Source of the DNA: Eledone cirrhosa
Taxonomy: Eukaryota
Assembly: GCA_964016885.1 (NCBI GenBank)
Contig: CAXHJY010000735.1
Span: forward strand, 1 to 50,141
Length of the DNA: 50,141 nt
Reading direction: 5' to 3'
This document shows, piece after piece, positions 11,526 through 49,134 of this stretch. Numbering within the stretch: position 1 is the stretch's first letter; each line of letters starts with the position of its first letter. Under the pieces are notes generated by a model. That model saw only the letters and a program-made list of their open reading frames with translations, was not told where the DNA came from and searched no databases. The position numbers and the translations under genes are program-made.

Positions 11526-12053
11526 CTACTGTACGTCTGTATACATATATGTATGTACGTGTCCATACTTATATTTAAGTAACAGCCGTACCAAGAGTGG
11601 GAAATGAAATTTCGTTTCATTTTTTCCGTTTATCGTTTTCGGTGCACCTGGCCGATTAACCCACTCGATATGCAAATTGGGCTACTCAGCCGTTAATATG
11701 CATAAGGTAAGTATATACATTCAACAATCTGGCAGGAAGGTATACGTTGCTGACGATAGCTAATAAGCTTGAAACTAGTACAGCGTTCCTTTGTCAGTGT
11801 TGAACAAACGAGCAACGATGGTTGCTGAACACTACGGCTTAATACGGGATGTTTGTTTACAAACACACCGAGCATTATAATAAATGTTCGGTGAATCCAT
11901 ACGTACATATATATATGTGTGCATGTATGTATATATATATTCATACTACTGTACGTCTGTATACATATATATATGTACGTGTCCATACTTATATTTAAGT
12001 AACAGCCGTACCAAGAGTGGGAAATGAAATTTCGTTTCATTTTTTCCGTTTAT
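11526..12053 (+). mobile_element. Retrozyme-like non-coding repeat, 420-bp monomer, about 1.26 copies
   Basis: 11526-11633 is repeated at 11946-12053 (period 420, one mismatch seen); it contains the hammerhead at 11744-11786 and ends in (TA)n. Confidence 0.8.
11744..11786 (+). ncRNA. Type I hammerhead ribozyme
   Basis: acgttg-CTGACGA-t-agct-aata-agct-t-GAAA-CTAG-TA-cagcgt: stem I acgttg/cagcgt, palindromic stem III ACTAGT, GUA cleavage site. Confidence 0.85.
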
Positions 12054-13910: not shown

Positions 13911-14024
13911 AGGATCAACAACAGGCAGCAACTAACCCCCATCTTCAATGACTTTGAGATCTATGTATCTCTCTGTCAGCCGAAGGTGGAGAGGGAGTGA
14001 CTGTCATGTTTCAGAAAAACCTGC

Positions 14025-17000
14025 ATCTCGAAGTACAGCAAGTACACTTGGACCGGAGGGTAGACTGGTAGTCCTAGACGTGAACAGTATTGGAGGTGGA
14101 GCCTTTAGACTGGTGGCCGTTTATGCCCCGACCGGGCAATCACAATCGCGGCCAGACTTCTTTAAGCGCATAGAGTCTTTTCTGGGAACGTCTCGCTCCT
14201 TGCTTTTCGTGGGGGACTGGAATGGTATCCTAGATGCACGATGGGACTATGTGGGAGCATGTCCCAGTAGAGCGGGGTGCAACAGCCTCAAAAATCTAAT
14301 CGGCCAATTCCAACTGGCCGATAGATATCGACAAGATTTCTCGACTGCACCACAGTGCACGTGGGCAAACCGAAGCGGGACATCTAGATCGTATCTAGAT
14401 AGGTTTTTCATTAGAGAAAAGGACAAGAAGATGTTAAGCTGTCCACAAATGCACATGGTTGCCTATTCAGATCACAAACTAGTCGTCTGCATAGTCAACC
14501 GTGATAGAATACATAGACAAGGACCCGGATACTGGAAGCTAAACGTATCGTTGCCGGCAGGAAAAGCCTACAATGAACGGATAAGTAGATTAGTTAAGCA
14601 AGAGTTGACGGGAGCCATCGTCAACAATAGATGGTGGTACTCTCTCAAGAAAGCAATTAGAGTAGAATCGATAGGGTTTAGCAGAGAATTAGCTTTAGAG
14701 AAAAAAAATCAGAAACAGAACTAGTAGCCAAGGTAGAAGAGGCGCTTAGGAGTGGCAACGCAGCTAGAGTGCTAGCATCGAGAACGGCACTGGACCAGTT
14801 CTTCGACGTGAAACACGAAGGCTGCGTGCTCTAGGAAACGAGGGAGCAAAAGCTGTTAGCTGGGCCCGAGTGGCGGAAGCGAAAAGTGGCAACAAGTTCA
14901 CGATTCGGTCTTTGAAAGACCAAAACGGACGCCTGCTACTTGATCCCAGGCAGATGTGCGCGGCCTTTCAGCGGCACTTTGCGCGACTGTTTGAGCAGAA
15001 CGACGGTGCACCGAACGGGGCAATGGACTTTGGTTCATACCTCGCCGGTCTGCCACATCTCTCGAGCATGGACGCCGAGTTCTTCGAAAGACCGATCACA
15101 GCCACTGAGATACGGGAAACGCAAATCACCCGGTCTAGATGGTCTACCCTATGAGTTTTACATAGGTATGCCGGACTTGTTCTCTGGCGTCCTCGAAGCC
15201 GTCTACTGCAATTGGCAGCAGAACGGGACAATTCCCAGCTCTGCAGGCAAGGGCATAGTAACGCTGATGAGGAAAGACGAGAAAAAGGGGGACGAAATAA
15301 ACAATTTCAGGCCCATAACTCTGCTCAACACAGAGTTAAAGATTTTGGCCAAGGTGCTAGCAACGAGGCTGGCGCTTGTCATCGAAAACCTGGTAGGGCA
15401 AGAGCAAACGTGTGCAATCCCGACCAGGTCCATACACGACAACCTCCACCTCATGCGATACATCATAGAGAAGGTGGGTAGTAAACCCGGCCTCGGTGGG
15501 GCTCTGATCAATTTAGATCAGTCTAAGGCATTCAATAGGGTCGACCATCGATACTTGGAAGCGGTTCTCAAGGCGGCCGGTTTCGGTCCCGTTTCCAGAG
15601 GCTGGATCAAGGCGATGCACACCAGCATCTGCTCGAAGGTCAAGGTGAACGGCTACCTATTGGAGCCGTTCGCAATCACGCGTTCCATTCGACAGGGATG
15701 CCCTCTCTCCTCCATTCTGTACGTACTGACTCTAGAGTCACTACTGCGGAAGTTGGAGCTTTTGCAGGGCATCCCTTTAGAACCGGGACTGCGAAAAGCG
15801 GCGTTAGCTTATGCCGACGACGTGACGGTAATGGTGTCGAAAACCCCGGAAATCGAGATAATTGGCAACCTACTACAGGAATACGAAAGGTTCACAGGAG
15901 CAAAACTAAACTCGGACAAGCCTGTAGGTTTGCAATTCGGAACGTGGAAAGGCAAACCGATGCCGTCCGACAGCGTCGTCGGACGCTGGACGGAAGGACC
16001 GGTGAAATTGCTCGGGGTCTGGTTCGGTCCAAACCTCCAGGTGGAGAAAAATTGTAACGAGGTCATGGCCAAGGTATTTGCGCTCACCCAGAAGTGGGCA
16101 GAGTGCAAACTGTCTTTGAAAGGTCGAGCAGAGGTGGCGAACACTTTCATAGAGTCTGTCATCTACTACCGCTTCACTGTTGTGCCTTGTCCCCGTGAAT
16201 ACCTCACCAAAATGGAACGCATGCTCTTCCAGTTCCTGTGGAAGAAGCAGGCTCCACTGGTGAGGAGATCCGTCTGCTGTCAACACCCTTCCAACAGAGG
16301 GCTGGGCATGCTGTGGCTAATGATGCGCAAACATGCGAGCTCACCAGTCTGTTTGGGCGGACTTTCCGCTCGGGACCTATGGACAACTTCCAGAGGTCCC
16401 TAGCCTGGCAGTGCTACCGAGGAGCTCTACCCGTTCGAGACAAGATCTACAGGCACGGACGCCCCGGCAGGGATCCTTCCAAGAGGACGTGTCCAAGATG
16501 CGAGCAGGACATTGAAACCGTCTTGCACGCAATTGTACACTGCCCGGGCGTAAGCGACCTGTGGAACTATGCAGAACAACTGCTGTCGCGTATGGGACAA
16601 ATCCAGTTGACTGCCGAGTCCATAGTAAGGATCAAACCGCCAGCCTCTTTCAAAAACGAAAGAGAGGCGGTTTTCCTCTACAGTGGCTATGGTGAAAGAG
16701 GTTATATGGTGGACGAGATTGAGAGGACTGAGGACAGATGCCTTTCTCTCTGGACAACAATTGATTCCCTTCTTTAAGTATCACTTTAGAAGGAGAATCA
16801 GAGTGGAGAGAGAGGCACTGCACCCCAGTAAATTTACTGAAAGGTGGGTGAATGAAGCGAAAATGGCCCGAGTGATTGGGCCTTCCCTGTTTATAAGCCT
16901 GTAGGTTAAAGAAGAGAGCAAAAGGAAGAAGGGTGCACCTGCACAACACGCTCCTGAAGTTGAGGGTTGTTCTATCGACGAGGTATTAAACAACCCATTT

Positions 17001-27043: not shown

Positions 27044-27200
27044 CTCATATATATATATATACATATAACAAAGAAGGTGTGGTAAGATACCAGGTGGACC
27101 ATAAAGCACCAGAGTACTGCTGGCTTAGTTCAGATCTCTACATAGAAAAATAGTTAGGACCCTGATGGCTGAGCTCCGGCTGTTTATATATATATATATA

Positions 27201-29143
27201 GTAACTATAGAGGCATTAAATTAATCGACCAGGTCATGAAGGTCACGGAAAAAGTAATAGCGCAACTAATCAGAGAGAGAATTGATCTAGATGAAATGCA
27301 GTTCGGATTTGTGTCAGGCAAAAGTACCACAGACGCTCTTTTCATTGTACGACAACTACAGGAGAAGTACCTAGCTAAAAGTAAACCTCTATACTTAGCT
27401 TTCGTCGACTTGGAGAAAGCCTTCGACAGAGTCCCCCGTTCCATTATCTGGTGGGCTCTTAGAAAACTAGGTGTTGACGAATGGCTTGTGAGGGCTATAC
27501 AAGCCATGTATAAAGAAACAGTCAGTAAGGTTAGAATTAACAACGAATATAGTGAAGAGTTTAGCGTAAAAGTTGGTGTCCATCAGGGCTCTGTTCTTAG
27601 CCCCCTACTATTTATTATTGCCCTTCAGGCTATAACAGAGGAGTTCAAGACCGGCTGCCCATGGGAACTCCTATACGCAGATGATCTAACGCTCATAGCT
27701 GAATCAATGACCGAACTAGAGAAGAAATTCCAAACATGGAAGCACGGCCTAGAATCAAAAGGCCTTAAAATTAACCTGGCTAAGACTAAAGTTCTAGTTT
27801 GTAGGAAAGAAAATAAGGCGGCAGTCCCATCTGGGAAATGGCCATGCTCAGTGTGTAGGAAAGGCGTAGGTAGAAACTCCATTTTATGTCCCAAATGCAA
27901 AGTATGGGTGCATAAAAGATGTAGTGGGATCACAGGTAAGCTAACTAAGAACATAGATTTTACATGTGGCCGGTGCTCTGGTGCAATAAGTAGCAGCAAG
28001 TGCTCACAAAATACTAGCTCCTTCAACTGCGCAGAGGGTTCTATAGAAATAGTGGACAGCTTCCGTTACCTGGGTGACAAAATCAGCAGTGGGGGAGGGT
28101 GCTCTGAAAGTACAGTAGCTAGAGTCAGAACTGGATGGAAAAAGTTCAGAGAGCTTATACCACTATTAGCCGCTAGAGGGTTCTCCCTAAAAATGAAAGG
28201 CAGGTTATACGATGCCTGCATACGAACAGCAATGCTGCATGGCAGTGAGACCTGGGCATTGTGTGCAAAGGATATACGCAGACTAGAGAGGAACGAAGCT
28301 TGCATGCTCCGCTGGATGTGCAATAGTAATATACGTGAACGGCAAAGCATAAACGAACTAAGGAAAAAATTAGAAATAAGAGGGATCAGATGTTGTTTAC
28401 TCAAGAGAAGGCTACGTTGGTACGGTCACGTGATGCGCATGAAAGACGACAGCTGTATAACAAAGTGCAGGGCAATAAAGATAGACGGTAGCCACGGAGT
28501 AGGCAGACCCAGAAAAACATGGGACGAGCTGATAAATTCCGACCTCACACGCTTACACCTCTCCAAGACAATGTCACTGGACCGAGACCTTTGGCGGTAC
28601 TCAGTAATAGAGAAGACCCGCCTTACCTAAATACAAAGTAAAAACCTACTACAGTCAATAGGAATCTCTATCAAACCCCCCCCCCCCCCCCCCGTCACAC
28701 CACCTCCACCCCATCCACACCGCCCCTTTCAATGTAAAGTTATGTTGGTCCCACAACATCCAGGCCGAAACAAATGAGATCGTGTAGGTGTCACGACAAA
28801 AAACACACAGTCCACGCTGTAAATGTGGCCGTGTAGGCAACACGATAAAAAACTCCCAGCCCCACACTGTAAATGTGGTTGGTGTTAGGAAGGGCATCCA
28901 GCTGTAGAAAACCCGCCAGACAGTCCACGCTGTAATGTGGCTGTGTAGGCAACACGGTAAAAACCTCCCAGCCCCACACTGTAAATGTGGTTGGTGTTAG
29001 GAAGGGCATCCAACTGTAGAAAACCCGCCAGACAGTCCTATGCGAGCAAGACAACCACTCTTGCCTCAAGTGGGAAAACCCCCGTCCAAACCCATGCAAG
29101 CGTGGAACACGGACGCTAAACCTGATGATGATGATGATGATGA
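27201..29143 (+). mobile_element. 5'-truncated RTE LINE with an uninterrupted RT C-terminal ORF
   Basis: Starts immediately after (TA)n; ~119-bp duplication in the 3' UTR; (GAT)n tail followed by (TA)n. Confidence 0.96.
27236..28630 (+). CDS. RTE reverse transcriptase (N-terminally truncated, 464 aa) containing a C4HC3 PHD-like finger
   Basis: QFGF, FVDLEKAFDRVP, GVHQGSVLSPLLF, LLYADD, FRYLG, RRLRWYGHV, GRPRKTW. Confidence 0.9.
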   Translation: MKVTEKVIAQLIRERIDLDEMQFGFVSGKSTTDALFIVRQLQEKYLAKSKPLYLAFVDLEKAFDRVPRSIIWWALRKLGVDEWLVRAIQAMYKETVSKVRINNEYSEEFSVKVGVHQGSVLSPLLFIIALQAITEEFKTGCPWELLYADDLTLIAESMTELEKKFQTWKHGLESKGLKINLAKTKVLVCRKENKAAVPSGKWPCSVCRKGVGRNSILCPKCKVWVHKRCSGITGKLTKNIDFTCGRCSGAISSSKCSQNTSSFNCAEGSIEIVDSFRYLGDKISSGGGCSESTVARVRTGWKKFRELIPLLAARGFSLKMKGRLYDACIRTAMLHGSETWALCAKDIRRLERNEACMLRWMCNSNIRERQSINELRKKLEIRGIRCCLLKRRLRWYGHVMRMKDDSCITKCRAIKIDGSHGVGRPRKTWDELINSDLTRLHLSKTMSLDRDLWRYSVIEKTRLT

Positions 29144-32730: not shown

Positions 32731-32735
<5 letters not shown>

Positions 32736-34590
32736 CGTGAGGTGTTCAGGATTGCTAGGCAATGCGTCAAGGAAAACCGTGATATTGTCGGGGAGAAGTG
32801 TGTACTTAACGATGATGGCATACTTGCCATCACCGACACTGATAAGAAGGTAGCTTGGAAGTGTCACTATGAAAGGCTACTAAATGAGGAGAATAAATGG
32901 GAGAAAGACAGTCTCCCCCATATCGACCCAATAGAGGGACCAGCAGTGTTAGTCGAGGGGAGTATAATAAGTAAGGCAATCAAGGATATGAAGACAGGTA
33001 AGGCGGCTGGGCCTTCGGAAATAGTTGCTGAGATGCTGAAGGCATCTGGCATGGTGGGACACACCATGGTCACTCGCATAGTTAACCATGTCGTACAGAA
33101 TGGGGTTGTTCCGAAGGACTGGCATAGCAGCATCATCGTTAACTGTTATAAGGGTAAAGGAGACGCCCTAGATAGGAGTAACTATAGAGGCATTAAATTA
33201 ATCGACCAGGTCATGAAGGTCACGGAAAAAGTAATAGCGCAACTAATCAGAGAGAGAATTGACCTAGATGAAATGCAGTTCGGGTTTGTGTCAGGCAAAA
33301 GTACCACAGACGCTCTTTTCATAGTACGACAACTACAGGAGAAGTTCCTAGCTAAAGGTAAACCCCTCTACTTAGCTTTTGTCGACTTGGAGAAAGCCTT
33401 CGACAGAGTCCCCCGCTCCATTATCTGGTGGGCTCTTAGAAAACTAGGCGTTGACGAATGGCTTGTGAGGGCTATACAAGCCATGTATAAAGAAACAGTC
33501 AGCAAGGTTAGAATTAACAACGAATATAGGGAAGAGTTTAGCGTAAAAGTTGGCGTCCATCAGGGCTCTGTTCTCAGCCCCCTACTATTTATTATTGCCC
33601 TTCAGGCTATAACAGAGGAGTTCAAGACAGGCTGCCCATGGGAACTCCTATACGCAGACGACCTGACACTCATAGCGGAATCAATGGCCGAGCTAGAGAA
33701 GAAATTCCAAACATGGAAGCACGGCCTAGAGTCAAAAGGACTTAAAATTAACCTGGCTAAGACCAAAGTTCTAGTTTGTAGGAAAGAAAACAAGGCGGCG
33801 GTCCCTTCTGGGAAATGGTCGTGCTCGGTGTGTAGGAAAGGCGTAGGTAGAAACTCCATTTTATGTCCTAAATGCAAAGTATGGGTGCATAAAAGATGTA
33901 GTGGGATCACAAGTAAGCTAACTAAGAACATAGATTTTACATGTGGCCGGTGTTCTGGTGCAATAAGTAGCAGCAAGTGCCCACAAAATACTAGCTCTTT
34001 CAAAGGCTACGTTGGTATGGACACGTGATGCGCATGAAAGTCGATAGATGTATAACAAAGTGCAGGGCAATAAAGATAGACGGTAGCCACGGAATAGGCA
34101 GACCTAGAAAAACCTGGGACGAGCTGATAAACTCCGACCTCACACACTTACACCTCTCCAAGACAATGTCACTGGACCGAGACCTTTGGCGGTACTCAGT
34201 AACAGAGAAGACCCGCCTTGCCAGTAGGCATCTCTAACAAACTACACCCCGTCCCGCCACCACCCCCACCCCATCCACACCACCCCGTTCCATGTAAAGT
34301 TATGTTGGTGCCGCGCCATCCAGGCCGAAACAAATGAGATCGTGTAGGTGTCACGACAAAAAAACACACAGTCCACGCTGTAATGTGGCCGTGTAGGCAA
34401 CACGGTAAAAACCTCCCAGACCCACACTGTAAATGTGGTTGGTGTTAGGAAGGGCATCCAACTGTAGAAAACCTGCCAGACAGTCCTATGCGAGCAAGAC
34501 AATCACTCTTGCCTCAAGTGGGACTACCCCCGTCCAAACCCATGCAAGCGTGGAACACGGACGTTAAACGTTGATGATGATGATGATGAT
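32731..34590 (+). mobile_element. 5'-truncated RTE LINE with an internal deletion
   Basis: ORF 32742-34028 (KAAGPSEI, NYRGIKL, FVDLEKAFD, LLYADD, PHD-like insert); ~380-bp deletion at ~34004 relative to the 27.2-kb copy; (GAT)n tail. Confidence 0.96.
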
Positions 34591-37100: not shown

Positions 37101-37292
37101 ATTGCTCTTGAGTGCTTTAATGATAAGGGCTTCAATCCTATCTTGCTGTTAGAGCTCATATCTATGCAGGTTTAGTCACATATTGATATATAATTAGACA
37201 AACGGATACACACATATATATATACACACACACGCACACACAGACAAATAAATAGGCAAACAGATAGAGAGAACGATAGATAAATAAACAGG

Positions 37293-37775
37293 AAAAATGA
37301 AATTTCATTTCTCACTCTTAGTACGGCTGATAAGTACGTATACGTACATACATGCACACATATATATATATGTACGTATGGGTTTACCGAACATTTATTA
37401 TAATGCTCGGTTTATTTGTAAACAAACAGCCCGATTATTAGCCGTACAGTATATGCAAATTAGGCTGCTCAGCCGTTAATATGCATAAGGAAAGTATATA
37501 CTTTCAAATGTTTAATCAACTGACAGGAAGGTATACAGTGCTGATGACAGCTAATAAGCTAGAAACTAGTTCATCGTTCCTTTGTCAGTGTTGAACAAAT
37601 AGGGCAGCGATGGTTGCCGAACACTGTACGGCTAATAATTCGGGCTGTTTGTTTACAAACAAACTGAGCATTATAATAAATATTCGGTAAACTCATACGT
37701 ACATATATATATGTGTGCATGTATATACATACTACTGTACGTCTGTAACATATATGTATCTACGTATACATACTT
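37293..37775 (+). mobile_element. Retrozyme-like insertion (420-bp family) with a 5' inverted arm and 17-bp TSD
   Basis: TSD atagataaataaacagg at 37276-37292 and 37776-37792; inverted arm 37293-37450; forward arm 37451-37775 homologous to ~11668-11990. Confidence 0.85.
37535..37577 (+). ncRNA. Type I hammerhead ribozyme
   Basis: acagtg-CTGATGA-c-agct-aata-agct-a-GAAA-CTAG-TT-catcgt; stem I has one mismatch. Confidence 0.75.
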
Positions 37776-37895
37776 ATAGATAAATAAACAGGCATAGATA
37801 AATAGACAGATCGAGCGATCAATAGATAGATGGGGAAGAGGGTCCACGACGAGAGACTAATAGATAAGAGAATAATGAAAACAGAAACCGAGAAA

Positions 37896-38228: not shown

Positions 38229-38619
38229 CATGCTATTAGCTGTCAGAAATGAAAGTTTCGTCAACCTTCTCAATCGTAAACATCGTTTATTTCCGTATTA
38301 CCACGCGTTTAATAAAGCATATCGATGTAAGTGGAGTTACTTAAATGAAAATATAGGTGGCCCTTAAAAGGGCCAAATTAGAAAACAAGTCATGGTTATC
38401 AAATAAATTGGATTTAATCATTATATTTTCATAGTCAAGGTTATCAATTTCATGTATAGGGTTGATGAAAAAAATTTGATAACCATATATTTGTTTTCTA
38501 TTTTGGCCCTTTTAAGGGCCACCTATATTCTCATTTAAGTAACTCCACAATACGGAAATAAACGATGTTTACGATTGAGAAGGTTGACGAAACTTTCACT
38601 TCTGACAGCTAATAGCATG
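38229..38619. repeat. Fold-back element / long inverted repeat (~145-175-bp arms)
   Basis: catgctattagctgtcaga...ggttatcaaat (38229-38404) mirrors atttgataacc...tctgacagctaatagcatg (38474-38619); the left arm carries an extra ~31 bp. Confidence 0.9.
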
Positions 38620-38878
38620 ACAGCTAATAGCCTCCATCCACAGTTTTCGGAAAAGAAGTCGTTTGCGAGTGGTCAGATTCGTACACGACAAAACCTTAAA
38701 AAGAAAACATCGAGGATGCGAGAACCCGAAGCCCTCCCCCATTTCCATTATCTGGGGGTGAAGGGTGAAGGGCGATTGTGAGTAAGTTGGAAGCCAGATT
38801 AGTTGAAAACACGAAAACACCTAAATAAAAATGCAATTTCTCACCGAACGGCAGAGAAGTGCTTTTCTAAAAATTTGC

Positions 38879-38921
<43 letters not shown>

Positions 38922-39210
38922 CAAATAACGAAACGAAATTAAATTTCGTTTCGTTTGTAACTCACTTTTGTATGACTGACGCTTAAACAATTAAGTTAAA
39001 AATGTACATCTACATATGCATACTGAAATACTAGTATGCATATGAATACACACACGTATACATATGTAGATGTACCAAGTCTTTCACTGGTTACTTTACT
39101 GTCAGTAATCCAGCTATTCTGTATGTAAACACACAGACAAACCGGTTTTTAGAGTCATACTGGTTTTCGAGGAAACACCTTTCCTCTATTCTCCAGAAAG
39201 CCAGACAAGG

Positions 39211-39255
39211 AATATTGAACTAGTTTCGTTGTTGTTACAACTCATCAGCAATATT
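39211..39255 (-). ncRNA. Type I hammerhead ribozyme (inverted copy)
   Basis: Exact reverse complement of 39913-39957. Confidence 0.88.
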
Positions 39256-39445
39256 TACCTATCTACCGGCCTTTCTGGAGAATCGTAAAAGCACATATCG
39301 TTATATGCTTTTTCTATGAAAATTAGTAGTGGGCAGACTAATTTGCATAGAGTGTGAGTACGTACCGGTTCAACGGAGACGATAAAAACAAATAACGAAA
39401 CGAAATGTGCTTTTACGATTCTCCAGAAAGGCCGGTAGATAGGTA

Positions 39446-39490
39446 AATATTTCTGATGAGTTGTAACAACAACGAAACTAGTTCAATATT
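39446..39490 (+). ncRNA. Type I hammerhead ribozyme (G>T at the first stem I pair)
   Basis: aatattt-CTGATGA-gttg-taacaa-caac-GAAA-CTAG-TT-caatatt. Confidence 0.8.
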
Positions 39491-39912
39491 CCTTGTCTGG
39501 CTTTCTGGAGAATAGAGGAAAGGTGTTTCCTCAAAAACCAGTATGACTCTAAAAACCGGTTTGTCTGTGTGTTTACATACAGAATAGGTGGATTACTCAC
39601 AGTAAAGTAACCAGTGAAAGACTTGGTACATCTACATATGTATACGTGTGTGTATTCATATGCATACTAGTATTTCAGTATGCATATGTAGATGTACATT
39701 TTTAACTTAATTGTTTAAGCGTCAGTCATACAAAAGTGAGTTACAAACGAAACGAAATTTAATTTCGTTTCGTTATTTGTTTTTATCGTCTCCGTTGAAC
39801 CGGTACGTACTCACACTCTATGCAAATTAGTCTGCCCACTACTAATTTTCATAGAAAAAGCATATAACGATATGTGCTTTTACGATTCTCCAGAAAGGCC
39901 GGTAGATAGGTA

Positions 39913-39957
39913 AATATTGCTGATGAGTTGTAACAACAACGAAACTAGTTCAATATT
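39913..39957 (+). ncRNA. Type I hammerhead ribozyme
   Basis: aatattg-CTGATGA-gttg-taacaa-caac-GAAA-CTAG-TT-caatatt: 7-bp perfect stem I, G-C-closed stem II, palindromic stem III, GUU cleavage site. Confidence 0.9.
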
Positions 39958-40740
39958 CCTTGTCTGGCTTTCTGGAGAATAGAGGAAAGGTGTTTCCTCG
40001 AAAACCAGTATGATTCTAAAAACCGGTTTGTCTGTGTGTTTACATACAGAATAGGTGGATTACTGACAGTAAAGTAACCAGTGAAAGACTTGGTACATCT
40101 ACATATGTATACGTGTGTGTATTCATATGCATACTAGTATTTCAGTATGCATATGTAGATGTACATTTTTAACTTAATTGTTTATATATATATATATATA
40201 TATATATACAGCTACTGAGAGAGAGAGAGAAAAGGACATCATGTATTAGAAGCTAGATAGAGAATGACAGGATATGTGTGACAAAAGAAGTAGAGACCTA
40301 GTGAAATAGAGTGAATGAGTAAGTGTGTGTGACAGAGAAAATGAGAAAAAGAGAGAGAGAGAGAGTGTGTGTAAGACTAAACACGAGACGGATAAAGTCT
40401 AAGAGATGAACTTGTTCAGTACAAACTCAAACAAGCTGTATGTGTACTCCTATAATAAAATTCTACTTCACACGCTTTCTCTCTCTCTTCCACAAACACA
40501 CATATATACTACACACACACACGTATATATATTTATACTAATTTACACACACACACATACATATATATACAAACACAATGCGTATATATACGTACACATC
40601 CCACAGACAGGCTGACGTAGATATTTGAAAATAGGAATGTAAACATAGATGTCTATATATATATATTTATATATAAACATATAGGTAATGGTATACATAC
40701 ATCATGTTTAAGTATATAACTAAAAAAAAAACAAAAAAAC

Positions 40741-42686: not shown

Positions 42687-44022
<1,336 letters not shown>

Positions 44023-44036
44023 CCCCCCCCCCCCCC

Positions 44037-45603
44037 CTCACCGCTTCCCACCTCATCGTCCGCACCCCCCGCACCCCCACCATCTACTTCCTCCCCAAAC
44101 TCCACAAACCCGACAACCCCGGCCGCCCCATCGTCTCCGCTTGCAACTGCCCCACCGAACTCATCTCCGCCTTTCTCGACCCCCTTGTCACCACCCTCCC
44201 CTCCCACATCTCCGACACCAACCACGCCCTGCGCCTTTTCGACTCCTTCACCTACCTACCCGGCCCACAGCCCTTCCTCTTCACCCTAGACATCAAGTCC
44301 CTCTATACAGTCATCCCCCACGCCGACGGCCTTCGCGCCCTCAAACACTACCTCGACCTTCGCCCCTCCCCCATTCCCTCCACCACCACCCTCCTTCGCC
44401 TCGCCGAGCTGGTCCTCACCCTAAATTGTTTCTCCTTCTCGGGTGAGTTTTACCAACAGGTCACGGGGGTAGCCATGGGCACAAGAATGGGCCCGAACTA
44501 TGCCAACCTTTTTGTTGGCCATGTTGAGGCCCAAATCATTGCCCAGTACACCGGCCCCACGCCCGAACTGTACGGTCGTTACATTGACGACTGTATCGGA
44601 GCCACGACCCTCACCCGAGAACAGCTCGACTCCTTTCTCTCCTTCTTCTGCTCCTTCCACCCCTCCCTCCACTTCACCACCTCTATCTCCACCACCCACG
44701 TCCACTTCTTAGACATCTCCGTCGCCTTCGACCCCTCCCACCACTCCCTCGTCACCTCCGCCTTCTTCAAACCCACCGACTCCCACGCTTACCTCGACTT
44801 CACCTCTTCCCACCCCACCCACACTAAACACTCCATTCCCTACTCCCAACTTCTCAGGATCCGCCGCCTCTGTAGCCGTGATGCTGACTTCGAGTCCCAG
44901 GCCCTTTCCCTACTCAGCCATTTCATCCGCAGAAGTTACCCCCTCTCTCTCGTTTACACCGCTCTCACCCACGCCCGTGCTGTCCCCCGCTCCACCACCG
45001 CACACCCACCCACCATCTCCCCTTCCCCATCACCTACCACCCCTCCACCGCCTCCAGTCCGACCCCTCCACCTCCCACATCTTCCCAACCCCACCACTCC
45101 CCTCCTTCAAAACGCGCATGCAATCTCTGCACCCTCCTCGTCCATAGCTCTCTACCCCCCAACCCACGCTCTGTTCCCCCCCCCCCGGTTCCTTTCCCTG
45201 TCCTAGGCCCCGCTGCAACACCTGTCCCCACATCACCAACACCACCACCTTCCAGGGTCCCAACGGCCACTCTCTTTCGGTCCGGCATGCCTTCCGCTGC
45301 ACCTCCTCCAACCTAGTCTACGGACTTCGCTGCACGGAGTGCATCGCGACTTATGTCGGATAGACGGGACGTCGCCTGGCGGACCGAGTCACGGAGCACC
45401 TCCGGGATATTCGTCTCGGGGGCAGTTCCCCCATCGCCCGCCACTTTGGTGGCCCTGGACACTCCGCACGCCATCTCACAGTCTGTGGCCTACTCCAGTG
45501 CCACGGAACACCCGCCCATCGCCTTACGGTCGAACAACGAACTATCTTCATCTTACAGACCCACACTCCCCCCGGCCTGAACTCCCCACCCTTATTCCTT
45601 TAG
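44037..45603 (+). pseudogene. Penelope-like RT and GIY-YIG endonuclease (disrupted)
   Basis: YFLPKLHKPDNPGRPIVS, LDIKSLYT, GVAMGTRMGPNYANLF, RYIDD, FLDI, KPTDSHAYL, SIPYSQLLRIRRLCS; after a frameshift CPRPRCNTC, NLVYGLRC..C..YVG*TGR (in-frame TAG at 45361), EH, PPGLN; stop at 45601-45603. Confidence 0.93.
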
Positions 45604-46983
45604 CGTTCGACCGCCCCCTCCCCCCACACTTATCCCCCACTAACACCACTAACACACCCCTCCTTTTCACCGCCCACCCCACACTAACAATACTAACACC
45701 TCCACTCCACCCCTCATCTGACCACCCTTCCCCAACTAACATACTAACATCCCTTCCCTCCCCTCTTCTCCCCCTCCTTATCACACGCACACACTTACAC
45801 CACCCACCCCACACGCAACTAACATCACTAACACCCCCAACCCCACGCACACGTACCCACGCACACCAACTCTACACACCCTACCACCACTAACCCCCAC
45901 TCACACCTGCATTCAACCCCTCCCCACCTCCCGTATACTAACACCCATTCACCAAACTACACACACACCAGTACACCACACTCCCTCCATAGAACCACAC
46001 ACACCCTTCTCTCCCCGCTCCACACTCACTCATCCCACTAACACCCCTACTAATACACACACACACACACACACCCTCCTCACTTCAACTTTCACACCTA
46101 CCCATCCTCGCCCCCTTACCATTCCACCGACTGCTGCTATGCCCTTCTGACCACCTCCCAGCACCAACAGACCACAGCACTCCCACTGCTGACCACTTCC
46201 TGTTGCGCGCGCACCCCACATCTCTCCTCTTCCGACCACCGCTTCATGGATTACCCACACGCAGAAATTGACTTATAACCAATCCTCCAAACATCCTTGG
46301 AACTTACCAACTTTTCAACCATCCTCTTACGTCATCACCTATATAACTCACCCACACACACACACACACCAAAAAAATTGACCAACAACCAATCCACTAA
46401 ACATCTTCGGAATTTACCAACTTTTCAACCATCCTCTTACGTAATCACCTATATAACTCACCCACACACACACCCCAAAAAAATTTTTTTTCTCCACACG
46501 CCACCCACACCACGCTTAAACCCCACACACACGTGCTTCCCACCACATATTTACACCCTCAGCCTCCTGATTCTTCTCCCCCCCACCCCCTATCCACACA
46601 CGCACAGACACTCCGACCTACAAAAACACCCCCCACACACACCTCTTCCTGAACATGCAACCCCGTTCTTCCCCCAACCCTTACTTTCACATACACACAC
46701 ACACGCACACACCACCTTCAGCCCTCCCCGCTCGGACACCCCCGTCTCCCTCTCCCCACTCCACCCGCCACCACCCCTACTCACCGCACACCCTTCCACC
46801 ACCTGTTTACCCCCCTTTTAATTTCAGTTTATTTTGATCATGCCTTTATTTTTAAATTTTCTCATTCCTTGTATTTTGATCATGCTTTATTTTTATTTTT
46901 TAACTTTATTTATTAATTTTTCATTCGCACCGTTTCCTTTCACTATATGTCTCTCCACCACTCCCCTACACACCTTTTGAACT

Positions 46984-47011
46984 CTGAGGAAGGGCTTATG
47001 CCCGAAACGTC
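46984..47011 (+). ncRNA. Minimal Penelope-type hammerhead motif
   Basis: CTGAGGA-A-GGGC-TTAT-GCCC-GAAA-CG-TC; stem I pairing is poor in this copy. Confidence 0.75.
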
Positions 47012-47100
47012 GTCCCCCACCTACCCCCACTCTCCTGAGCGTGAAATTAATAAACATTTATTGTACTGCCCCTGTTTTGTCCCTGTTCAAATTTTTCCAT

Positions 47101-49134
<2,034 letters not shown>

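Follow-up and report, generated by a model that had tools for sequence, protein, structure and literature searches.

How does a short non-coding unit with a hammerhead ribozyme come to lie in a genome as two divergent arms, joined head to head and running out into (TA)n? The question is raised by a stretch of the Eledone cirrhosa genome (assembly GCA_964016885.1, contig CAXHJY010000735.1, positions 1 to 50,141, forward strand); the whole of this 50,141-nt stretch is referred to as the window. An earlier note, made from its letters alone, had pointed to three hammerheads in an inverted-plus-tandem array at 38915–40184 and had read them as a recent insertion of a retrozyme-like system.

The movement of retrozymes by enzymes of Penelope-like elements (PLEs) through rolling-circle copying has been proposed before from co-occurrence and sequence kinship (PMC7229834; Li 2026). 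Cervera and de la Pena 2020 (PMC7229834) give retrozymes of 150–450 bp, show circles in coral, mussel and axolotl, and propose a PLE helper with rolling-circle copying; the word 'Inverted' occurs 0 times in the available text. Li et al. 2026 (bioRxiv 10.64898/2026.07.22.740005) report families of 51–972 bp with pseudo-LTR kinship, discuss tandem growth as unequal crossover, and found one of nine Xenopus retrozyme dimers to be cleaved and eight not. Concerning the PLEs themselves, Frangieh et al. 2024 (PMC11167929) describe a PLE protein which cuts and extends both strands, with a dimer model and two internal RNA start sites that show no difference between strands; when they reconstituted the reaction, it was mainly uncleaved RNA that served as template, and mutants of the ribozyme were still inserted. 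Craig et al. 2021 (PMC8557442) and Arkhipova et al. 2013 (PMC3846280) describe an inverted copy and an optional or one-sided tail and explain the inversion by endonuclease resolution or self-priming; the former names the origin of the inverted copy and tail of Penelope an open question. Related literature includes Cervera 2014 (PMC4209133), PMC8490949 and PMC7761336, and the available text of the Octopus vulgaris repeat annotation (PMC13282606) does not mention ribozymes.

Structure of the insertion

The unit from one predicted ribozyme cut to the next (39484–39950) was numbered M1–M467, and the family which it represents is called M. The features of the locus are as follows.

38915–40184, no strand: two-armed insertion as a whole; the 3' ends of the divergent arms face outward
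38882–38917, no strand: left target tract, (TA)18, with an AT microhomology overlap with the arm end
38915–39406, minus: B arm, 492 nt, monomer 279–467 followed by 1–303; its 3' end is site B
39195–39266, minus: type I hammerhead of the B arm, stem I intact; predicted cut 39218/39217
39405–39406, no strand: head-to-head junction of the two 5' ends; overlap of 2 nt exact, or 8 nt with one mismatch
39405–40184, plus: A arm, about 780 nt, monomer 389–467, 1–467 and 1–234; its 3' end is site A
39435–39506, plus: middle type I hammerhead, G2.1 changed to T at 39452; predicted cut after 39483
39484–39950, plus: cut-to-cut monomer M1–M467, 467 nt, 35% GC, branched predicted fold, no ORF
39626–39697, plus: long AU-rich hairpin M143–214, just upstream of site A; also in the sister families
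39706–39719, plus: small hairpin containing site A (arm ends M228–235)
39718–39786, plus: 'tail' between sites A and B, 69 nt, at one outer end only per insertion
39746–39774, plus: hairpin M263–291, 13 bp, within the tail
39782–39786, plus: site B (arm ends M299–303), in a U-rich linker predicted to be single-stranded
39902–39973, plus: third type I hammerhead, intact, stem III palindromic; predicted cut after 39950
40183–40208, no strand: right target tract, (TA)13

The right arm has a period of 467, and the left arm of 492 nt is one monomer plus 25, in agreement with the 'about 25 bp' that had been read from the letters. The variants M50, M105 and M115 form a mosaic across the three units of this locus, which is fully explained neither by one template nor by simple later mutation.

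Hammerheads and predicted RNA fold

All three hammerheads were recovered, with cores at 39248 (minus), 39453 (plus) and 39920 (plus). Their scores with the Rfam model HH9 are 38.6, 30.8 and 38.6 bits (E from 6e-8 to 2e-5), all lower than its gathering score of 52, and a scan at the gathering threshold reported no hammerhead. Rfam miRNA and sRNA matches on the element, which were far below threshold, were attributed to its hairpins. Hammerhead numbering and triplet rules are used here as generally known, and GUU is a slower cleavage triplet than GUC. The triplet of the M family is GUU and not GUC. That note also expected the exact excision of a 467-nt RNA, 39484–39950; the borders of the unit hold, but in the middle hammerhead position 39452 is T instead of G and the stem I pair next to the cleavage site is lost, so that it is doubtful whether this copy could release the exact monomer. 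In a read-through RNA of the locus, the longest uninterrupted duplex measures 423 bp, short of the roughly 490 bp that had been supposed.

The monomer is non-coding, as claimed: the longest ATG-initiated ORF on the circular unit has 22 aa. Looking at the fold, the linear unit gives a z of −8.9 (0 of 100 shuffles were equally stable) and the circular unit a z of −10.7 against 40 shuffles, with 67% of the positions paired; the hairpins named earlier, the branched form and the self-complementary stem III are all found in it. The M unit and that of its sister family S (below) are predicted to fold with the same layout of domains. In an alignment of 10 units, two-sided changes occur in 20 of the 82 predicted pairs, stems I and II of the ribozyme included; this covariation among M, S and the further sister family V rests on about three independent lineages, and DNA hairpins would fit it as well. 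The ribozyme core is preserved across families which are about 60% identical, and so are its stems I and II and the palindromic stem III.

Family size and sister families

An exact pattern of the 31-nt core has 7,812 matches in the genome, and the reversed pattern, used as a control, has 0. A similarity search with the monomer gave 210 matches from 40 scored of 594 candidates; the matches listed are 95–100% identical and are spread over many contigs, in line with a recent insertion. Arrays of the M family contain from 1 to about 31 units. The sister families S and V are about 60–64% identical to the M unit, and their core pattern has 24,001 exact matches; together with the M family, the genome contains over 30,000 exact hammerhead cores.

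Two sister copies lie in the window. A one-armed S copy at 11526–12053 (plus) has a period of 420 nt, ends at its own site B in (TA)n, and has the triplet GUA and a U-U pair at the base of stem II. An older, two-armed copy at 37276–37776 has its B arm on the left, its A arm on the right and a hammerhead at 37541. Another hammerhead-like motif recurs at L055, L115, L119 and L120; its stem II is long and its stem III region measures 7 nt. Also, the motif ATGCAAAT (39820–39827, plus), which we take to be octamer-like, lies within a stem, is kept in nearly all M, S, V and T units, and may belong to an internal promoter.

Judged from its sequence, the insertion at 38915–40184 is young, lies in (TA)n and belongs to a dispersed hammerhead family with a non-coding unit of 467 nt. 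On all DNA-level features tested, the M family belongs to the young non-LTR retrozymes: there is a hammerhead in each tandem unit, the unit is non-coding with a GC content below 50%, the tandem arrays are dispersed, the predicted circle is highly self-paired, and target duplications, where they can be seen, exceed 4 bp. It differs from plant LTR retrozymes, with their type III hammerhead and 4-bp duplication, by its type I topology and longer duplications. The earlier note considered the monomer unusually large; 467 bp is indeed just above the 150–450 bp of Cervera 2020, but inside the 51–972 bp of Li 2026.

Paired ends and the target site

The arms of the M family end at two places only in most insertions. 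Their 3' ends lie at M228–235 (site A) or at M299–304 (site B), and enter (TA)n through 1–3 nt of microhomology. Both ends are at these sites in 50 of the 67 elements, and all 50 combine one A with one B end, with zero A+A or B+B; the remaining 17 are one-armed or interrupted, have ends which were not resolved, or end elsewhere. The elements come from two sets. The similarity-chosen set has 41 loci, that is, the 40 scored in the monomer search and one met by chance. In it 32 are A+B (one of these with a short A arm) and none is A+A or B+B; in four only one end is at a fixed site, the opposite one being interrupted or elsewhere, two are one-armed, and three are joined to a different element. 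The position-chosen set consists of the first 100 of the 7,812 core matches, which make up 25 loci with 26 elements in the first 47 Mb of contig C1. Eighteen of these elements are A+B (14 by BLAST and four with second arms of 12–14 nt), eight are one-armed, interrupted or without resolved ends, and again none is A+A or B+B. For this set alone, the chance of 18 out of 18 is 0.5^18, or 4e-6. Both sets require at least one arm which crosses the ribozyme, so short insertions are under-sampled.

The same sites are seen in contigs of sequencing run X1, possibly the assembly's own sample, where loose ends into (TA)n are found at 39712, 39717 and 39786 (3, 5 and 12 records) and only there among the records listed. 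Six sequencing runs containing the unit, from three studies and under three organism labels, were listed, and contigs of four of them, of unrecorded kind, were compared; being contigs, they reveal no RNA ends. No RNA run was among those listed, which speaks neither for nor against expression. Of the 11 two-armed loci in the sister families, 10 follow the A+B pattern, and the remaining one is interrupted. Target duplications measure 7–13 bp in L057 and 8–17 bp in the sister copy at 37276; they are visible only where the target is not pure TA, since (TA)n hides them elsewhere. The tail is 69–74 nt long in the M family, and 55–60 in the sister family and in the coding family H (below). An inverted 5'-truncated copy, a one-sided tail and an AT-rich target, which make up the insertion signature of PLEs, are present in the 50 of 67 elements and bear out the suggested dependence of a retrozyme-like family on Penelope-like machinery. 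The inverted arm is what the insertion mechanism leaves behind throughout the family; it is neither special to the locus at 38915–40184 nor chiefly a device for dsRNA.

Arms, unit joints and junctions

The two arms of a locus resemble each other more than they resemble those of other loci. Over 46 loci, arms differ at 0.0056 of shared sites within a locus and at 0.0222 between loci, and 0 of 2000 permutations were as low; in the position-chosen set with L163, the values are 0.0044 and 0.0322. Haplotypes differ clearly between the two arms at three of the 46 loci (L124, L055 and L186). Gene conversion between the inverted arms could be an alternative source of the likeness. The arms are nested in 17 of 30 loci and non-nested in 13, the locus at 38915–40184 included; where neither arm is a sub-interval of the other, neither can be a fold-back copy.

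Concerning the joints between units, 146 of 146 are seamless in the first set and 95 of 101 in the second. Only two of 116 5' ends are at the ribozyme cut, against 0.75 expected (p 0.17), and run-off or jumping at the cut is therefore unsupported. Seamless joints without a pile-up of 5' ends at the cut indicate a template which is continuous across the ribozyme site, either a circle or an uncleaved multimer. The 18 full units over both arms of L192+193 are identical, and L031 has 18 units with one private variant in common; this uniformity favours a single circle. The 30-unit arm of L180+181 (G000:C1:5738000-5752700), unlike those of L031 and L192, is a drifting mosaic with a rough period of three to four units, as is expected of DNA-level expansion or mixed templates. 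In sequencing run X4, a 496-nt contig runs round the unit; tandem DNA and a circle yield the same joint, so such contigs fit both equally well.

The head-to-head junctions of the 46 loci comprise 28 overlaps, four blunt joins and 14 inserts. Some junctions, at L199, L230 and L233, are true palindromes, with both 5' ends at one position. In most pairs the 5' ends of the arms are at different positions, and the longer arm may be either one. An expected correlation between arm lengths was absent (rho 0.05, n 49).

Coding Penelope-like elements as candidate helpers

No ORF lies between the units in the 67 M elements examined, and none of the coding families compared (the Neptune-like PLE of the window, H, P3 and Hydra-like) uses the M unit as its pseudo-LTR, which the earlier note had named as a finding that would speak against it. 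The nearest named relative of one coding element in the genome is an Octopus vulgaris protein with 70% identity.

Copies of family H are 97–98% identical and have open frames of up to 1,282 aa. The C-terminal 663 aa have weak Pfam matches to RVT_1 and GIY-YIG, below the curated cut-offs; Pfam gave no match on the full 1,269-aa frame, and a profile search against the PDB only weak matches to bacterial RTs. H is 23% identical over 452 aa to the Neptune-like PLE of the window. Its own hammerhead has 8,795 exact matches in the genome. H has two ends, 55 nt apart and inside the start of its ORF, and all 14 of its two-armed loci that were resolved (23 were examined) pair A' with B'. A short AT-CG step follows site B of M and S as well as both ends of H, and may be taken as a weak sign of a tie between them; no alignable similarity was seen between H and the M unit. 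The H copy at L166:1065-5763 (minus) has an asparagine-rich stretch before its RT, which recalls the N-rich inserts of Adineta Penelope elements (PMC3846280).

Some retrozyme arrays are joined to pieces of PLEs. At L040, the B arm of an M element is joined head to head with a 5'-truncated coding H, and in this joint B is paired with B' and not with A. At L147:530-1460, a V multimer lies upstream of a 5'-truncated H in the same orientation and is linked to it via a short inverted piece, by a template switch or a later deletion. At L041 and L039 the partners are Hydra-like PLE pieces by their CxCX5C, CxxC and CxH motifs, and not Naiad, as was considered. Later deletions could be the origin of all these joints.

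H is the likeliest helper among these families, which we put forward tentatively and as a candidate partner only. The Hydra-like PLEs are older (92–95% identical) and thus not favoured; several families with the CxCX5C linker, CxxC and CxH were seen, at L208, L156, L165, L166:8085-8950 and L121. The ends of P3 are unrelated to the M unit. The Neptune-like PLE of the window was also rejected as a helper: it is unlike the M unit, and no inverted 3' arm came into view within the 1.5-kb flanks of 30 of its loci. The window copy itself (44022–47101, plus) is 5'-truncated, lies in (TA)n and has a minimal hammerhead at 46984; its family is young and very abundant, with 26,107 first-look candidates.

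Other features of the window

A MITE-like palindrome of about 400 bp at 38229–38620 is 73% self-complementary. Its inverted repeats hold the sole Rfam match at gathering level, a histone 3' stem-loop (34 bits), which is probably due to chance. LINE remnants are found at 27173–28630, 32733–34028 and 13936–16403 (all plus); they include two RT and PHD-finger frames and one endonuclease–RT element.

Proposed mechanism and alternatives

We read the M element as a retrozyme that is copied from one, probably circular, RNA by a borrowed PLE RT–endonuclease which primes on both nicked strands, and consider this reading as a whole to be more probable than not. Its parts differ in strength. It is very probable that M is a non-coding element mobilised by PLEs; twin priming on one RNA is quite likely, and a circular template is reasonably probable. 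By analogy with other retrozymes, multimeric loci would be transcribed, the RNA would be cut by pairs of hammerheads, and the monomer would be closed by a host ligase. The helper would nick both strands of (TA)n in a staggered manner, which is consistent with the observed target and the two duplications. A protein dimer would presumably then let one 3' end prime at site A and the second at site B, some 70 nt away in that RNA; priming at A would take place in the loop of the small conserved hairpin, and at B in the U-rich linker after the 13-bp hairpin. Each RT would travel 3' to 5' round the template and push aside the cDNA of the other, completing between 0.03 and about 14 turns; multimers with seamless joints are indeed observed, and circularity of their template is what we infer from them. 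Finally, the cDNA ends would unite head to head by short overlaps, such as are observed at the junctions, followed by fill-in. Twin priming on a circle would give divergent arms, a one-sided tail, the A+B rule, shared haplotypes and arms longer than the unit. That a PLE-type dimer holds one viroid-like circle at two fixed sites while both RTs chase round it, in a double rolling-circle integration, is a possible extension about which we are less than evenly convinced. In twin priming of L1, a single RNA is primed by both 3' ends of the target, which leaves an inverted 5' part and a microhomology join; the process is occasional there, and its second site is arbitrary. Unlike this, it would be the main route in the M family, with both sites fixed and arms exceeding the unit length.

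Points which speak against the proposed mechanism are the GUU triplet, the damaged middle ribozyme, the mosaic of L180+181 and the smaller one at 38915–40184, the uncorrelated arm lengths, the three exceptional loci, the 17 of 67 elements outside the A+B count, the B with B' joint at L040 and the lack of alignment between H and the M unit. The triplet, the mosaic of L180+181, the arm lengths and the three loci speak for twin priming by a PLE protein on uncleaved linear multimers, with the hammerhead largely a passenger and the longest arrays due to later unequal exchange; the main substrate of the Anolis PLE is uncleaved RNA (PMC11167929), and cleavage is weak in most Xenopus retrozymes (Li 2026). 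A linear template, however, can only shorten the array with each jump, the identical arrays of L031 and L192+193 call for either two separate recent expansions or a parent array without any variation, and the core and all three stems, of which stem III is palindromic, are conserved with two-sided changes at about 60% identity, so that we hold linear templates to be rather unlikely. Single priming, then fold-back (self-priming) or endonuclease resolution, is the earlier proposal for Penelope elements (PMC3846280; PMC8557442) and would also leave an inverted arm and a one-sided tail; the palindromic junctions of L199, L230 and L233 and the nested arms of 17 of 30 loci agree with it. It is very improbable for the M family, in which the 13 of 30 non-nested loci are impossible for a copy of the first cDNA, the longer arm can be either one, paired 5' ends are mostly at different positions, and both outer ends meet the target with short microhomology.

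Two further explanations dispense with a retrozyme. The locus could be a DNA satellite, a fold-back element or an assembly palindrome with a chance ribozyme motif. Palindromes are a known artefact of long-read assembly, and the inverted junctions were not seen in the sequencing-run contigs compared. This can hardly be maintained in view of sense-strand 3' ends which are fixed while the 5' ends vary, target duplications, non-mirror arms, the X1 loose ends at the same sites and a ribozyme core conserved on one strand. The M unit could instead be the solo pseudo-LTR of a coding PLE outside those found: 24 of 57 Xenopus retrozyme families are homologous to Repbase elements, nearly all of them PLE termini (Li 2026), and coding copies could be rare among the loci beyond the 67 sampled elements. 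Given no ORF between units in those 67, unrelated ends in four coding families (the Neptune-like PLE of the window, H, P3 and Hydra-like) and a predicted fold that closes as a unit-length circle in all families, we regard this as highly unlikely.

Comparison with known systems

As in the animal non-LTR retrozymes (PMC7229834; Li 2026), the M family has non-coding tandem units, a type I hammerhead with a short palindromic stem III, a GC content below 50%, a compact predicted circle and co-occurrence with PLEs, and rolling-circle reverse transcription is proposed for both. It differs from them in that its insertions consist of two diverging arms whose ends in (TA)n are fixed and paired, an anatomy not described in the available text of Li 2026; it also comes from a cephalopod, a group which those papers do not treat in the text available, no coding-PLE pseudo-LTR homologue was found among the families compared, and its circle is predicted only. 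With the EN+ PLEs (PMC8557442; PMC3846280) it has in common a partial tandem and a head-to-head inverted copy, a tail at one end and an AT-rich or (TA)n target, but it has no ORF, its tail is 69–74 nt instead of 30–40 bp, and its arms may contain many monomers. The Poseidon element PAc of Anolis (PMC11167929) likewise has two internal 3' ends with the hammerhead upstream of them; no start-site difference between its strands was seen, whereas the pairing in M is strict (50 of 50). The non-autonomous Chlamys elements, such as MRC1 (PMC8557442), are also PLE passengers with multicopy head-to-tail insertions. They resemble their helpers at the 3' end and are mostly without hammerheads, in contrast to the M family, whose hammerhead is canonical and in which no likeness to a helper was detected.

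Retrozymes, Penelope tails and inversions are already known, and the one-sided tail has been described qualitatively before. The literature search, with Repbase, Dfam and supplements outside it, found no cephalopod retrozyme, no account of the M family, in accord with the earlier note, and neither the A+B rule nor twin priming as the source of PLE inversions. What is new is that two fixed ends are paired strictly and reproducibly on one template, a rule common to M and a coding PLE.

The M family presents the Penelope insertion signature on a protein-free unit, in thousands of young copies and with strict pairing of ends. This pairing links the spread of retrozymes to PLE machinery and makes the origin of the inversion and tail of PLEs testable; a direct bench test is possible, in which the RNA would be 467 nt long with its two start sites mapped, the target would be (TA)n, and the candidate enzyme is one with open frames. 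If the proposed mechanism is true, asymmetric twin priming would also account for how PLEs in general come by their head-to-head inversion and a tail at one end only, since the coding family H of the same genome obeys the A+B rule too, and it would imply an enzyme which writes both strands of its insert from one RNA circle.
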